Counted from the first letter of the whole stretch, positions 2-35,798 are shown. The stretch: 62,479 bases of DNA, filler included, from Globobulimina sp. (GCA_003354225.1; 14 parts of 14 records of this genome joined end to end with filler, not necessarily neighbours in it); one strand, 5' to 3'. The notes: a model not told the origin generated them from the sequence alone. Made by a program: numbers and translations.

Positions 2-1106
2 GTGGTGGTTGTCACTTTTGTGTCGGTGGATAATGACGTTTTATATAATATCGCTACTGCGTCAAGGGTGGTTGCTAATGATTTGAATGTGTCACAATGG
101 AAAGGATTAAGTGGTACAGGTTTAAATGGTGCAGAATTAACATCTCTTTCCAGTGTGAATAATGGATCTGACATAGTTCTGGCTATTTCGAGTCAGAATG
201 GAATGGTGTCTGTATTGTCAATGAACAAAATAAATTTGGAGATTGAGGTATATAGTATAATTATACAGGAATTAAATAATGTAACTTGTATAAGTATTGA
301 TGCACTGATAATATATTATCTAATTCCTCATAATTATAATTAAGGAGATAATGTATGGCCGGTTAGTACCACGTGAATGTGGCCAAGTTGTTGTTGTAAG
401 TTCAATGTTTTTACAATGGCAAAAACCGAAATTATTGATATCTCAGATATTTGTTTGTAACTCATTGGTTTTGGGCATTCAAAAATGGATACAAAATGCC
501 ACGGTGCCCAATGGATTTAGTGAGTATGGCGAGACAATGTTAATCACACAGTTCGAAGATATAAAAGACATTCGACATTTATCGATTGTGGTATCCGCTC
601 AGTTCAATATTGTTGCTTGGTCAGCAAATAAAAAGATATTTGGTGGATGGGGTAGTTTGACAATTACAGATATTATGCAAATTGGTGTTGGAGACAAACC
701 GCGATTATCAATGAATAATGATATGATTATTATGGTGCATGAAAATGCGTATTGCTGGATCAGTGAGAAACATTTAAAAAGATCGACGCCGGCCACTTGT
801 AACGCAACGCCTATGTCAATGAAAGGTGTGTTAGGATATAGCATTGGCACTGGAGAGGACTGGCAGAATAAGTTTAGGGATAATGATGGGATGATATCTG
901 TTTGTGATAAATATCTTATTCATGGAATGTACGATGGAGGAAATAATCCATATTCGAGCATTGTTACTGACACAAATGGCAATGTTGCGGTTGTAGCTAT
1001 TCATGGAGGAATAAGAGAGCTCTTTGGATACACAGAGTTGACTGCTTGTGGAGCACCTATCAAATACAATGATTTGGTTCTTGATTCTTGGAAGATCAAT
1101 GCATAA
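2..1106 (+). CDS. Hypothetical protein, 5'-truncated, probably two exons
   Basis: ORFs 2..343 and 351..1106 can be joined in frame by a GTAACT...TAAG intron at about 281..344. No family recognised. Confidence 0.5.
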
Positions 1107-1197
1107 ATGCGGGTGCTAATAATTTTAATTTTCCCTCCAAACTTGTTGAACTTTTCTAACGCTAAAAAAAGGGTTATGAGGACAAAGAACATTGAAT

Positions 1198-3183
1198 TCA
1201 AATATTAAAACTATAGGTCCCCGACGAAGGAATTACAATATTATATGTGTATACATTCCAATCAGTATTGCCTGTCGCCATTGGGACTAACACAGAAATC
1301 TGCACATTTTCATTTGCTTCACCTCTAACATCCACACTTAGTGATGATCCATCAATGAATAAATTATCAAATCTATGTTCAGAAACAGAAACATATTTAT
1401 CCAACTCACCCAATAACACACATTCATGGGAGTCTGCATCGACAATTTGTATCAATTCAAATGAATGACTCATTGGATATATTACGCGTTGTGGCGCCAA
1501 TGCATATAAATAATCACTATGTGCTTCCGCCAACTGTACACAATTACTTTTTATTGCCATTGTGCCATTCATCACACAGTTTCTATAATTATGCCAATTT
1601 CTGACAATATATCGAGAATCACTGTTTAAAACTGGCGCAAATGACGAATACTTTAAATCGTATGCCATCCCCATATCCAATGCATATACTATGCGATATT
1701 TACTATACATATTCTTTGGGCCGTATTCCGTGGACCAAACATTAATAGTTTTGCCTGAAAAGATGCGAACAATAAACTGATCATCAATTGCAGTCATTGG
1801 TCGCTGTGGTTGCAACAACCTCCCATCTGAGCGGCATAACCGTTTGATTAATGTCGCATTGCTATATCCCGCACGGTCACTTATCCCAACAGGGCCTAAA
1901 CTTAATAGAGCAGCGATCGCATGGACTTCCGTGCTGTTATGATCAGTGCCAGTCGGATGGTTTTCGGCTGGCACTGCTTCCTCAAAATATGTCCAGAAAT
2001 TGTCTTTGCTCGGTTTTAAATGCAACGCGGACCAAAATATAGCGCCTGGACCAATATTCCAATTGCCATCACTTGCATAATCACCTGATGCTCTACCATT
2101 TGTTACTTGGGATAGAGATAATGACTGCATTAAGTCCATTGGAGTAGCCATACAATCTGATGTTCATATTGATATATTGTTAATTTGTGTTATTTATGCT
2201 ATATATATACTTGCATTGTATTCCCAATCCGCGTTCCTTTGCTGCCAGATTCATGCCATCCAACCACTGTTGTTGTGCGCCAACATGCGTTCTAAAGTAT
2301 GGTGTTCCGGACAAACAAGACATAAAATCAACTTCGTAAGCCACCATGCCAGTATTTGGGCCATTTGTGGATGCTGTAATACCAAAGTCAAATAAAGCAG
2401 AATAAAACGCATATGAATCTTGCGGTGCTGGCAATACATACGCAGCGCCTTGAGGGATGAACTCAAAATCACCGCTCCAATCATTTTCTGGTTGAAAGTA
2501 GGGTCCATATAAAAGTAATGGCACTTGGATTGTTTTGGCTAAACCGGCTTTTTGTTAATTTATATAATATAATTATGCATTATGTGAGACAAAACAAACC
2601 TAAACCGCCTGGATAATATGTTCCTGGTGGCTCCCAATGCGACACTGCTTTAACTCCACCCCAATATTTGTCCGGATAATTACCAACATACCACCTTATA
2701 TTATAAAACTGTGTATGTAAATATGTAATATATATAAACAAACCAATCATCCATTTGCCAATACTTAATTGGAATCTGTTGAGCATCCAATTTCTCCTTA
2801 GTTTGTCGCATCTCATCCAACGAACAACATGTTAAATTCATTGGATTTGACCGTGTGGCTCCTTCCCAACTATCTCCATAATAATACGCACCGTTATCAG
2901 TCCTAATTCATGCATCGTAAACATTATTAGCGGTTATCGCAAAATACAGCAATTTATACATACCAGTAACCCAAATAAGAAGTTACCACATCTAACTCCG
3001 CTTCAATCCTTGCAGTGTGATACAGTGATGTCAATCTTTTGGACCATTTATTCAACACAACATCATGTATGCCATCACCAACAACCACCACTGTTTCATG
3101 CTTAAATCCTTGCGGGATTTCCAAAATCTGCGCTGCGATTCCTAAGCGCCAATCGTTATTTATATATCCAGAGCCATTATTAC
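1198..3183 (-). CDS. Glycoside hydrolase clan-D-like (GH36/raffinose-synthase-related) TIM-barrel protein, 5'-truncated, at least 5 exons
   Basis: Spliced translation gives LGYWTDNGAYYY, YWQMDDWWY, YPGGL, YEVDF, GIQYCM, RASGDY, KDNFWT, LSLGPVGISD and DGRLLQP. Introns at about 2157-2214 (GC-AG), 2548-2599, 2695-2743 and 2903-2963. Confidence 0.7.
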
Positions 3184-31227: not shown

Positions 31228-31327
31228 NNNNNNNNNNNNNNNNNNNNNNNNNNNNNNNNNNNNNNNNNNNNTTAATTAATTAANNNNNNNNNNNNNNNNN
31301 NNNNNNNNNNNNNNNNNNNNNNNNNNN

Positions 31328-33112
31328 TATCATTTGCATTACTTTTATTTTCATGATTAAATATTGGCGGAATTACAACCTTAACATTTTCATCCAAACC
31401 ATTCTCTACAAACTCACCAAACTCACAGCTTTGATTCATGGCTCTGTCAATAAAGCTGTCAAACAAACTGTCATTATAGCAGCGAGACTCATTAATAGCA
31501 CCATACGGATTCACCATTTGCCAGATCGTATTCCCTGATTTTAAATCAATGGCATGCACAGATCCTGCACTGCAAAGTCTCATTTTATCATTCAATTCAT
31601 ACATATTGGCGCCCAGCGTCAGAACAATGCCAATCATCGAAGCTTCATCCACTGCCATATTAAAATTCGCCATGTCAGTAAAAGGTCCGAAACTTTTTGA
31701 TATCACCAATTTGCCGGAAGGCACCTCGAACACAAATAATTGTGATGGTTTTTGAGATGCAGCAACGTATAAACTGTTATTATATCGAAATGTAGCCACT
31801 GCAGAGAGATCAGCATTGGGTCCCTGATTACCTAAACTCGGACAAAATGGATAAGAAGTTTCGTCCGTCCAACATGAGGGAGAATAAAGCACATCAACTC
31901 CTTGCAAAGGCATTCCAGCCTCCAGTTCAAAAGTGTGTTTATTTAAAATAATTAAGCTGTCCGGAAACACATCGCGCTCCAAACATCTCCAAAATCTGTC
32001 ATCTTCTCTGTTATCTCCACAAACGTTTCGCGAATAACTATTTTCTAATGGCACTTTGCTGAAATCTCCCGATAAACACTCATCGATATAATATGGTGTT
32101 CGATACAATTGCCCAGTTCCTGTTTATCATTTTTTTATGTTTCACAGAAATGTTTAATATTTAATATAAAAAAAGAGTATATACCAAATACAACATAATC
32201 GTCGATAATAGCGGGGAAATTATAGGCTCCCGCTCCTAAATAAGACATGTTATGATCATCATAAATGGTTAAATTCCTATTAAATGGATACCATGTTTTG
32301 ACCACTTGCTGTGTATTAATATCAATTTTAAAAAATCTGCCAATAATTTGGGAGCCATTGACATGATTTCCAGACTGCGCCAAACCTCCATACGCGTAAC
32401 CACCATCGACAAAGAATCCATGCACATTACACTGCCAATTCAACGGATTATAACCAGCGGCGATTTCTAATTTCCATAGTAATGAACCATCGGAAATATC
32501 CACTGCTATGGCCCAGCAACCTGCTTTCATTGGATACGTAAAATGCCAACTTCCGAATGGATATGTTCGACGACTTGGTGCTCCAAATAGAGCTCCACGG
32601 CGCCCTCTTTTATCTTGAAACAATGTGAGTGACTGATGAGTTCCAACCGATATTTGTGTTTGGTTATAACCCATTATTTGGGCAACATTCACCCTCCAAC
32701 TTACTGCACACGTTTCCATATCAATTTTGGTGACAAAACCACTTAAATCTGTGAAATATGCATTGTAGTCATCATCGATTGTTGGGAATCCATTGACTCC
32801 AATGGCTCCTGGCGATTCATACACACATTTTGTTGTGACATCCTTTATATTGGTCGAATTTATTGTAATTCTATCTGGGTAAGGCGATGTTTGTTGATTT
32901 TGCAAATTCCCACCATAACAAGGCCACAGACCAATCATTCCTGATTTGTGTGACGACGAAGAGTCCAACACATCAAATACTGCGAATAATAAAATGAGTG
33001 TGATTATAATTATTACAATGATGACCGCAGTTGATATCAACAGCACAGATTTAGTTTTGGATGCAACTGGTTTCGATAAAAGCTGATCCTGACTTGTATA
33101 CATGGCCGCCAT
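31328..33112 (-). CDS. Type II membrane PQQ-like beta-propeller protein (polyvinyl-alcohol-dehydrogenase-like), 3'-truncated
   Basis: TM anchor, WPCYGGNLQNQ, repeated AVD..DG.LLWK / AIDLKSGNTIWQ, GPNAD, ASQK. Intron 32120-32184. Confidence 0.75.
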
Positions 33113-33245
33113 GTTGTGGTCGAAAAATAAGTGTTTCTTCAAAAAGAAAGTTTTGAGGAAAAAAAACATTATTCTATCAACAATAAAACATTAATTTACA
33201 ACAAAAATTATAATCACAATCACCACAAAATATTTATTCCTGCAC

Positions 33246-33881
33246 CTATGGAATGCCAGGAAAATGCTCGACAAATTTGATTTTAAAGTCTGGGAAATGT
33301 TGAACAATTTGAATCTTAAAATCTGGGAAATGATCAACAATCTGCCACTTTCCAATGGAATCTGGGAAATGTTGCACGCGCTGAACATTTAAGTCTGGGA
33401 AATGACTCACAACTTCGACTGTATAATCTGCAAAATGTTCCACAAATTGTATTTTACCATAGATCTGTGCTACGTTTACTTTTTTATTGCCAGCAATTTC
33501 TCCAATTCCTTGTGGTTGCGGGTTTTGTGGCGGTGGTTGTTGTGCTTGATATCCTTCCTGTTGTTCCATATTATATTGCGCAGATTGAGGTTGTTGCACT
33601 TGTACATATTGCGGTGGGTTCCCAGCGGGTTGTATTATCACTACATTATGCCCTTTGCAATCAAGAATTTGTATGTTGTGCAAGGATAATATATTATATA
33701 TACCTGCTTGATTTGGGGTTGCTTGTTCTTGTACAAATACTACAGGCTGTCTCTGTTGCCGTTGCATTAATAATCTTCTTTGTGCAATGCGTTGTCTTTG
33801 GCGTTGTCGCCGATAAACACAACTTACGATCACAACTACTATAAAAAATATCCACCACCAAGAATTGTAATAATCTGACAT
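33246..33881 (-). CDS. Single-TM, Gln/Pro-rich protein with a C-terminal (V/I)xHFPD repeat domain resembling the bacterial 7(1)-knot family
   Basis: WWWIFFIVVVIVSCVY-RRQR, probable in-frame intron 33653-33703, then IYGKIQFVEHFADYTVEVVSHFPDLNVQRVQHFPDSIGKWQIVDHFPDFKIQIVQHFPDFKIKFVEHFPG. Confidence 0.8.
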   Translation of the reverse strand: MSDYYNSWWWIFFIVVVIVSCVYRRQRQRQRIAQRRLLMQRQQRQPVVFVQEQATPNQAGIYNILSLHNIQILDCKGHNVVIIQPAGNPPQYVQVQQPQSAQYNMEQQEGYQAQQPPPQNPQPQGIGEIAGNKKVNVAQIYGKIQFVEHFADYTVEVVSHFPDLNVQRVQHFPDSIGKWQIVDHFPDFKIQIVQHFPDFKIKFVEHFPGIP

Positions 33882-33922
33882 GATACGTTTGAGTTTAAAG
33901 TTTTGTCAAAAAAACTATTACG

Positions 33923-35246
33923 ATGTTCTCCATGTTCTCCATATATGCGATATATGCAACATTATCATATCATTGTTTATCGTTAGACAATGGTTTAGCA
34001 CGCCGTCCGCCAATGGGATGGTCGACCTGGAATTTGTATCACCGCACTTTTACGGATCAAGTTTTTTATGACGCAGTAGATGTATTTGAATCGACCCCTA
34101 TGAAATCTGTAGGTTATGAATATATCAATGTAGATGGTGGTTGGTGGTATTCTGTAAATAAAACAGTAACACGCAACAGCACTGGTTACGCCTATGTAGA
34201 TCCAATAAAGTATCCAGACGGCATTCAAAAAGTAATAAATTATATCCATGCACACGGTTTGAAATATGGCCATTACACAGATGCAGGGACCAATGCATGC
34301 GATGGTGATACACAAATGAGTGAAAATTTCATGCCTCAGGATATTTCTCTATTTATTAGTTGGGGCATTGATATGATTAAAGTGGACGCCTGCTCTGTGA
34401 AAGGGAATGATACGGCCATTACATTCCAATGGAGAGACGATTTGAATGCAACTGGGCGAGCTGTACTATTTAGTAACTGTAGAAATCACTGTTTATATAA
34501 TGACTGGGAACCGTGGTGTGTTGGATTAGCAAATATGTGGAGGATAAGTGAGGACATACAATCGAATTGGAACGGTATGTTGAAAAATTTAGATGCCACA
34601 AAATCATATGGAAAATATGCGGGTCCTGGCGCTTGGAATGGTATTTTTTTATTTTTGTTTTTTAATATTATATATGCCGTATATTGTGTGTATAGATCCA
34701 GATTTTCTTGAAGTTGATATTGGTGAGTTTCAGTATAATGGAGACGAGGAATCAGTGTTAATGAATGAAGCTCATTTTAGTTTATGGTGTATTATATCGG
34801 CGCCATTGATCGGTGGGATGAGTTTGACGAATATTAGTGAGGCCATATTGGATATCATGGTGAATAAAGATGCCATTGCTGTGAACCAAAATTATTTAGA
34901 CAATGCTGGTGATGTTATCACAGAATTTAATATTTCGGATAGTTTTAGAAATGAATATGAAGAGCAAATGGCTAAAAATGGTAATCAAACTGAATTGTTT
35001 TATAAACCGTTACCTGCAGCAGTTGGTAATGCAGCATTTGTGTTTTTGAATCGGAATACGAGCAAAGCATATAATGTTTCGTTGGGATTTAGCCAATTAC
35101 CATTTAATAATGGTAATAGTGCTGTGGTGGAATGTTCATCGTTAGATATTTGGACAAAAGCTATAAATAAAACAACTTCTTTTGAAGCTACATTACCTCC
35201 ACAGAGTGTTAAATTTATTCTGTTGTCTGATTGTGTAATTTATTAA
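33923..35246 (+). CDS. Alpha-galactosidase / alpha-N-acetylgalactosaminidase (GH27)
   Basis: Signal peptide, LDNGLARRPPMGWSTWN, YINVDGGW, WGIDMIKVDAC, NMWRISEDI, GPGAWN|DPDFL (intron 34641-34695), HFSLWCIISAPL. Confidence 0.95.
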
Positions 35247-35798
35247 TTTATAATGTAACTTATATTATACAGTACTTTAACAACTGTTTACCAACTGTTT
35301 AAGCATCAGCAATCATGGGCTGCACGGAAAGCATCAGCGACCCAATCAAGCATGAATCTAAAACAACAAGAATTTGAAAATATAGTGTCAAACAATCATC
35401 CCGGCGAGGTTGCTTATAGTGTCCCGGCGAGGTTGCAGTGCAATGTTTTTTTTTTTTAACTTCGAACTTAGAATGATGACATTTATTATTAACAAAAAAA
35501 AATGCTCACATCATCTTCAGATTGTATTTAGTGCGACAACAAAAATAAAAAGTTTATATTTTTATATAAACCAACAAAAACAAAACAAACAAAAAACAAA
35601 TTTAATAATGGTAATAGTGCTGTGGTGGAATGTTCATCGTTAGATATTTGGACAAAAGCTATAAATAAAACAACTTCTTTTGAAGCTACATTACCTCCNN
35701 NNNNNNNNNNNNNNNNNNNNNNNNNNNNNNNNNNNNNNNNNNTTAATTAATTAANNNNNNNNNNNNNNNNNNNNNNNNNNNNNNNNNNNNNNNNNNNN

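Follow-up and report, generated by a model that had tools for sequence, protein, structure and literature searches.

The stretch of DNA analysed here, hereafter the window, comprises 62,479 nucleotides (nt; filler included) of the genome of Globobulimina sp. (GCA_003354225.1), in which 14 parts of 14 records were joined end to end with filler. On the minus strand of the window lies a two-exon gene running from position 33881 to 33246 (ATG at 33881-33879, stop codon at 33248-33246), whose product combines a predicted membrane-spanning helix at the N-terminus with a C-terminal domain of the Septknot family. Its unspliced frame comprises 211 codons from the first ATG, whereas the spliced product has 194 amino acids (aa), the exon lengths adding up to 582 nt (194 codons, a multiple of three). 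Coordinates are those of the window, and residue numbers refer to the unspliced reading (P0001, 211 aa). A preliminary description of this sequence had listed an N-terminal hydrophobic helix, a Q/P-rich linker, a PPQY motif, and a tail with six turns, all of which were found in place on the minus strand. The helix coincides with the top 15-residue Kyte-Doolittle window of the protein (W8-V22, mean 2.61; length 15-16 residues), and the basic run that the same description had placed behind it carries a net charge of +7 across 15 residues, compared with -1 across the seven residues before the helix, which include neither K nor R. The linker of ~110 residues is rich in Y in addition to Q and P. 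The C-terminal domain (72-79 aa) begins with IYGKIQFV, includes GKWQIV, and is built around six turns (HFAD149, HFPD160, HFPD171, HFPD184, HFPD195, and HFPG206); it contains no cysteines, and a profile search of the six-frame translated window found no second Septknot copy there.

Table 1. Coordinates of the Septknot gene and its parts in the window.
Feature	Position	Strand	Basis
Approximate extent of the messenger RNA (mRNA)	33151..33894	-	contig ends; weak evidence
Exon 1 (178 nt): start codon, 7-residue stub, helix, basic stretch, start of linker	33704..33881	-	open reading frame (ORF), translation, splice joint
Predicted transmembrane helix, residues 8-23, WWWIFFIVVVIVSCVY	33813..33860	-	Kyte-Doolittle; conserved in P0082
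Basic stretch after the helix, RRQRQRQRIAQRR	33774..33812	-	charge count; conserved in P0082
Spliceosomal intron (51 nt), GT..AG, GC 0.255, phase 1, in frame, stop-free	33653..33703	-	contigs and sequence
Exon 2 (404 nt): rest of the Q/P-rich linker, then the Septknot domain; stop codon follows at 33246-33248	33249..33652	-	ORF, contigs
PPQY in the linker, unspliced residues 89-92	33606..33617	-	single copy; weakly conserved
Septknot domain (PF19647; modelled length 79 aa) with six beta-strands, five HF(P/A)D turns, and HFPG at the end	33249..33485	-	

For the analysis of splicing, contigs from four public runs (X1-X4) were placed on positions 31500-35690. Contigs of X1 and X2, which represent one sample of study P1 and are mostly 90-99% alike to the window (~5% divergent), join 33651/2 to 33703/4 and thereby omit 51 nt with GT..AG ends. 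An identical joint was found in a contig of X4 (study P3, mostly >=99% alike), and a contig of X3, a DNA-like run, keeps the intron (33600-34276). One 675-nt contig of X2 (record 10) spans 33235-33894 with the intron removed and covers the entire coding region. The RNA nature of X1, X2, and X4 is deduced from skipped introns, as no run is recorded as RNA: the RNA-like runs also omit 65-66 nt at 32118-32183 in a neighbouring gene, and within the alpha-galactosidase gene, 34636 is joined to 34695 in one X2 contig. Because introns of neighbouring genes are skipped too, the contigs of X1, X2, and X4 behave as complementary DNA (cDNA). The gene is transcribed and spliced, and the 51-nt AT-rich intron, which had previously been called probable, is real, being skipped in contigs of three runs from two studies. 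At the ends of X4 contigs, adapter letters at 33893 are a weak hint of a 5' end, and adapter letters together with a T run before 33151 are a similarly weak hint of a poly(A) site.

By its sequence, the C-terminal domain is a genuine Septknot domain (Pfam PF19647, formerly DUF6150). A word-indexed search of 5.8 billion proteins gave 150 hits at E<=0.01, and among the 120 that were listed, 119 carried a precomputed PF19647.5 label (best E 2.2e-34), with 34-73% identity over the C-terminal third of the query. The domain is 52-76% identical to the 115 hits combined in alignment A1, and 55-76% identical to hundreds of bacterial proteins. A profile built from the 115 homologues with the window left out matched the six-frame translated window with 136 bits and E 1.4e-41 over positions 2-78/79, which places the repeat domain far beyond chance. 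When the ESM Atlas was queried with residues 133-211, all 30 of 30 neighbours were annotated as '7(1) septoil knot domain-containing protein' (PF19647 Septknot), and the three clusters shown were all 100% Bacteria; a query with the full protein gave no usable match there.

Comparison with proteins of known structure led to the same family. In a phmmer search against PDB sequences, the sole significant chain was 8iwa_A, 'Uncharacterized protein UU089.1' (Q9PR55), at E 7e-7, and alignment A1 used as a profile scored 8iwa with E 2.3e-15 over chain residues 26-85. The link to Ureaplasma Q9PR55 drawn in the preliminary description was borne out, entries of this protein also being the only significant structural matches in the PDB. 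Q9PR55 (PDB 8iwa, 8iwb, 8iwc, 8jrm, 8w68; the 7_1 'septoil') shares six short beta-strands and xFPD turns with the window domain, the turns of the latter lying between its six modelled strands and being followed by the terminal HFPG. The two differ in that they are only 30-34% identical and in the first turn residue (HFPD in the window, SFPD in Q9PR55), a position that is occupied by H 202 times and by S 405 times among the 115 homologues. In addition, the window domain carries an additional HFPG tail at its C-terminus, shows a GKW loop of the kind typical for mainstream members, and sits in a eukaryotic protein on a membrane anchor with a linker of ~110 residues. A literature search on Septknot and DUF6150 gave no account of eukaryotic members, the InterPro species table lying outside its coverage; the family is already catalogued, and what is new is a eukaryotic, intron-bearing member of it.

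AlphaFold2 modelling of the tail with alignment A1 yielded a confident structure (mean predicted local distance difference test, pLDDT, 93.2; predicted template modelling score, pTM, 0.77) with strands at positions 10-14, 21-25, 32-36, 46-49, 56-60, and 67-71 of the 79-residue piece. In a Foldseek search against the PDB, entries of Q9PR55 were the only matches at E<=1e-3 (4 of 25 rows; best 1.7e-5, probability 1.00). VIA-align placed the model on 8iwa and 8iwb with Z 8.2 and a root-mean-square deviation (rmsd) of 2.4 Å, aligning 67 of 77-79 residues, and on the nuclear magnetic resonance (NMR) model with Z 6.3. As modelled, the domain shares the fold of Q9PR55, and its superposition on 8iwa would imply a torus-knotted backbone. 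Brems et al. (PMC9278004) predicted a 7_1 knot in Q9PR55, and Hsu et al. (PMC10840475), whose account includes five conserved xFPD turns in this protein, solved it. For another member of the same family, Synechocystis P73136, which is 48% identical to Q9PR55, the predicted knot was computed as 5_1 by Brems et al. (2022, PMC9278004). Members of the family may thus differ in computed knot type, and the putative knot of the window domain may be either 7_1 or 5_1.

The family to which the domain belongs is large and bacterial. An exhaustive phmmer search of 1.84 billion representatives detected 1113 proteins at E<=1e-3 and 627 at E<=1e-10, and in a pattern scan with one genome per bacterial or archaeal species, relatives were encoded by 553 of 600 stretches among the matches listed. 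The 80 best rows came from Bacteroidota, Rhodothermota, Acidobacteriota, Verrucomicrobiota, Planctomycetota, Pseudomonas, Campylobacterota, Spirochaetota, Cyanobacteriota, and others, and the window domain is 57-76% identical to them. With a median pairwise identity of 64% among these 80 rows, the window domain lies within what bacterial members show among themselves. A maximum-likelihood tree of 81 domains placed it in a bacterial group of 17 rows that lacks internal resolution (support 92/86, not strong), together with Bacteroidota, Rhodothermota, and others, mostly with the 'HFPD' form. When further database rows were added, the nearest were P0003 (78%), P0002, a Rhodothermales metagenome-assembled genome (MAG), and P0006.

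Identities of up to 76-78% to bacterial proteins could also arise if the gene were a bacterial contaminant or the product of mis-assembly. Such a contaminant would not be expected to carry a spliceosomal intron that is removed in transcript contigs, and contigs of the DNA-like run X3 (records 16 and 17) connect the gene to eukaryotic neighbours on both sides; splicing and linkage together already refute this explanation. Base composition argues in the same direction, as the domain is host-like (GC 0.359, GC at third codon positions, GC3, 0.304, against means of 0.346 and 0.320 for host ORFs), unlike the genes at six of the closest bacterial loci (GC 0.43-0.68). Moreover, the relative sampled by X1 and X2, which is ~5% divergent, expresses the same spliced gene, and a more distant relative, represented by the protein P0082, carries it as well. 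Contamination is left with next to no probability, and the gene is eukaryotic, as had been claimed.

P0082 (EukProt) is 150 aa long and breaks off after the first strand of the domain; from the helix through the basic stretch and the linker to the beginning of the domain, it matches the window protein at 47% identity. It is the only listed protein that matches the N-terminal half, both among the 120 rows of the word-indexed search and among 150 rows of the phmmer run. Relative to the window, the linker in X1 and X2 is longer by 39 letters (13 codons) immediately ahead of the domain (window ~33493-33495), and P0082 has a similar extra stretch, PISNIAPIAHNY; the linker thus varies in length while the domain is kept. 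EukProt contributed two of the 120 listed hits, P0082 and P0118. In the latter, adapter-like peptides border the Septknot core on both sides, and a chimera derived from a bacterial contaminant is probable.

These comparisons agree with the earlier proposal of a bacteria-to-protist transfer: the bacterial family is large, the window domain nests among bacterial rows, and the N-terminal half is shared, among the proteins listed, only with P0082. Judged from the sequences, it is well supported that the ancestor of a narrow protist lineage received the domain from bacteria, and we infer the direction of transfer from the same data. The transfer would be old, because the base composition is host-like and the gene is common to the window and P0082.

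The same bacterial look might instead reflect a domain that is ancient in eukaryotes, inherited vertically and held close to its bacterial counterparts by extreme constraint. Constraint is indeed strong, given the high identity among the 80 best bacterial rows from many phyla, and at least two eukaryotic groups have the domain. The second group consists of proteins of ~250-260 aa (P0109, P0115, P0117, P0119, and P0120) that start with 'MGC', are Cys-rich in the middle, and have an SFPD-type Septknot at the C-terminus. Locus L081, a 1988-nt contig of ~20% GC, belongs to the same group; here, the Septknot gene (1029-1772, plus strand, 247 aa) adjoins a clathrin light chain gene (206-790, minus strand; PF01086 E 9.4e-10, 39.2 bits against a cut-off of 22), and because of this neighbour the L081 gene can be regarded as eukaryotic. 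Although both groups are eukaryotic and carry the domain at the C-terminus, the L081 group differs from the window protein in its MGC start, its cysteines, the lack of a helix, and its SFPD turns, and the N-terminal parts of the two are unrelated. Forcing the L081 group and the window domain into one clade costs 60.3 log-likelihood units and was rejected (p-AU 0.0115); the group had been defined before the tree was seen, and with 77 columns only, the test is not a strong one. Neither the three ESM Atlas clusters shown, all of them entirely bacterial, nor the two EukProt hits among the 120 listed, one of them an adapter chimera, fit a domain that is widespread in eukaryotes by descent. Vertical inheritance is therefore very improbable. 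Eukaryotic Septknot genes are scattered and probably of separate origins, a pattern that fits repeated transfer rather than vertical descent and makes the present case less unique. The MGC start of the L081 group could be a lipidation site.

Other architectures of the family were also surveyed. A homologue search among longer proteins found none of 254 candidates at E<=1e-3, which is weak evidence against large fused forms. In several long proteins (P0249, 817 aa; P0377, 490 aa; P0346, P0289, and P0382), the Septknot domain always lies at the extreme C-terminus, behind N-terminal parts with coiled-coil-rich, Thr/Pro-rich, and Tudor-like repeat regions, and P0242, P0015, and P0023 contain two tandem Septknot domains with paired cysteines.

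The overall plan of the window protein recurs in its bacterial relatives. A hydrophobic stretch lies within the first 45 residues in 102 of the 115 homologues, and the domain forms the C-terminal end of the protein in 105 of 115. Mainstream PF19647 proteins (P0002, P0003, P0006, L001/L002; Bacteroidetes and Rhodothermales MAGs) are 71-78% identical to the window over the whole domain and share six turns of the HFPD form, a C-terminal domain ending in FPG, and the order of hydrophobic N-terminus, linker, and domain. In contrast to the window protein, they are only 100-135 aa long and have a charge order resembling that of signal peptides, whereas in the window protein the charge bias is reversed and the Q/P-rich linker is much longer, and its gene has an intron and a host-like base composition. 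The architecture may accordingly be a remodelled bacterial one.

Charge order around the hydrophobic segment bears on the side of the membrane that the domain faces. Membrane proteins generally follow the positive-inside rule, and since the positive charge of the window protein follows the helix, the predicted topology is N-out/C-in, with linker and domain in the cytosol. On this reasoning, the domain would face the cytosol rather than being exported. The opposite arrangement, in which the helix is a signal anchor or cleaved signal peptide and the domain is luminal or outside as in bacteria, giving a secreted or surface Septknot, would keep the ancestral compartment and so be the simplest history. 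It agrees with the export-type character of the bacterial homologues, as K/R residues were more numerous before the hydrophobic core in 63 of the 102 with a hydrophobic N-terminus, more numerous after it in 11, and equal in 28, and with the paired cysteines of some subfamilies. However, the window domain lacks cysteines, and the charge order of the window protein, with its net +7 directly after the helix and no positive charge before it, is opposite to that of signal peptides, as is the layout of P0082. We therefore regard a luminal or external domain as quite unlikely.

The preliminary description had further proposed that the knot domain was fused to a single-pass adaptor. In the form of this idea considered here, a pre-existing eukaryotic PPxY adaptor of the WBP1/NDFIP type, which recruits WW-domain HECT ubiquitin ligases, would have received the domain by fusion. 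The layout indeed resembles that of WBP1-type adaptors (PF11669), in which a short stub and one helix precede a basic stretch and a proline-rich tail containing a PPxY: P0001 gives a weak WBP-1 match from the helix to PPQY (E 0.011, 16.9 bits) and P0082 a weaker one (E 0.19, 12.8 bits), the linkers of both orthologues contain one PPQY each, and the basic stretch after the helix would place this motif on the cytosolic side. Yet both scores are far under the 28.1-bit cut-off of the family, and the PPQY occupies a different linker position in P0082 and may have arisen by chance in a linker rich in P, Q, and Y, so that the resemblance is one of layout only. The N-terminal half was not seen alone among the 120 and 150 listed rows, below which weaker N-terminal-only hits would rank, and the intron interrupts the linker rather than marking a module boundary. 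The bacterial members already combine a hydrophobic N-terminus and a linker with a C-terminal domain, and the fusion found no support; we consider it rather unlikely. Of the preliminary interpretation as a whole, the family link, the eukaryotic gene, and the bacterial origin were supported, unlike the adaptor fusion.

Taken together, we think it likely that the locus is a transcribed and spliced protist gene for a single-pass membrane protein whose Septknot domain was acquired from bacteria. Several observations weigh against this reading. The window domain is not contained in any strongly supported clade of the tree, which does not name a donor. Most database matches come without an organism name, so further eukaryotic holders of the domain are possible, and with the L081 group another eukaryotic Septknot group does exist. 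The window may itself have been assembled from the X3 sample, and the linkage that X3 provides is thus not independent. The local Pfam-A scan gave no PF19647 row for the window protein, and the local NCBIfam scan gave no Septknot row for the protein or the domain alone. As the Pfam-A scan was equally silent for labelled members (P0002, P0006, P0015, P0023, P0109, and P0118), we read this silence as a gap in the local library rather than as evidence. Finally, the superposition by Foldseek on 8iwa and 8iwb was poor (template modelling score 0.36-0.41, rmsd ~10 Å), and VIA-align was used for the structural comparison in its place. VIA-align paired model residues 1-78 with chain residues 12-84, and the sequence alignment pairs model residue 11 with chain residue 26 and model residue 68 with chain residue 85, a difference suggesting that the register is off by about one 11-residue repeat towards the C-terminus; residue-level equivalence is not settled. 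Such a shift is expected because the structure is pseudo-fivefold, and it probably explains the poor superposition by Foldseek.

The surroundings of the gene are AT-rich (27-38% GC in 2-kb windows) and gene-dense, and window ORFs carry protein kinase, PDEase_I, DNA_pol_phi, RCC1, MATH, Melibiase_2, and diphthamide synthase domains; an Rfam scan of the window gave no match at gathering thresholds. The diphthine-ammonia ligase of the window is 49-73% identical to two EukProt entries and four metagenome proteins, compared with 31-53% for named organisms, and forms a fully supported clade with those six rows in a tree of 22 rows, the deeper placement near Willaertia and dictyostelids being without firm support. 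The Septknot and alpha-galactosidase genes are divergent, with start codons ~45-50 nt apart (33881-33932), and judging from contig ends at 33893 for the minus-strand gene and at 33927 for the plus-strand gene, their transcripts may start only ~33 nt apart. On the other side, the next minus-strand gene has its ATG at 33113, and contig ends at 33113-33115 are a hint of where its transcript begins; a spacer of ~36 nt (33113-33151) would then separate it from the end of the Septknot mRNA. This neighbour (32135-33190 and 31272-32123, both on the minus strand) has a 65-66-nt intron confirmed by contigs, and it encodes a membrane protein of the single-pass type, for whose large domain Pfam gave no match at E<=1e-5. 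Two runs of N (35699-35742 and 35755-35798) are separated by 12 bases, and in the segment just before them, 35610-35698, the end of the alpha-galactosidase ORF is partly duplicated, with the peptide SAVVECSSLDIWTKAINKTTSFEATLPP occurring a second time; this is probably an assembly gap or artefact.

For the history of the gene, the following course would fit the data. The donor was probably a lineage with the 'HFPD' repeat form, the nearest rows being Bacteroidota- or Rhodothermota-like. After an old transfer, the composition would have come to match the host, an intron would have been gained, and the gene would have been handed down to both the window organism and the source of P0082. The bacterial plan, in which a hydrophobic N-terminus and a linker precede the knot domain, would have been kept, with the charge bias around the helix reversed, and this reversal could have turned the domain towards the cytosol instead of into export. 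There, the domain is predicted to fold as a six-stranded, torus-knotted mini-barrel like that of Q9PR55, and could represent an exceptionally unfolding-resistant module tethered to the membrane.

A function is harder to propose. Among 80 bacterial loci, the largest cluster of conserved neighbours was shared by only 7, so that there is no general operon partner and no functional lead from gene context. Hsu et al. found Q9PR55 to be a monomer that withstands 7.2 M urea without effect and that ClpXP degrades at a slow rate similar to that of UCHL5, and they suggest the conserved phenylalanines as linchpins against strand slippage (PMC10840475). Because Q9PR55 resists urea and ClpXP, we guess by analogy at a mechanical role for the window protein as an unfolding-resistant, membrane-tethered module, which is possible, if on balance doubtful. 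It is a long shot to go further and suppose that eukaryotes captured a bacterial Septknot at least twice, independently, and each time moved it from the exported compartment to the cytosolic face of a membrane, with a reversed signal anchor as the means here and perhaps lipidation at the MGC start in the L081 group, and that the knot serves as a C-terminal stopper, resistant to unfoldases and the proteasome, on a PPxY membrane adaptor. If this were true, it would be the first protein knot recruited for mechanical resistance in the turnover of eukaryotic membrane proteins.

The family includes what is described as the most complex protein knot solved so far (PMC10840475). The context in which Septknot proteins have been characterised is bacterial throughout, and a eukaryotic, membrane-anchored, and probably cytosolic copy is a moderately surprising new setting for it, both for the folding of a knot on eukaryotic ribosomes and for a possible block of the proteasome or Cdc48. 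For the protist, the gene is a clean example of how a small bacterial gene may be turned into a spliced gene of its new host.

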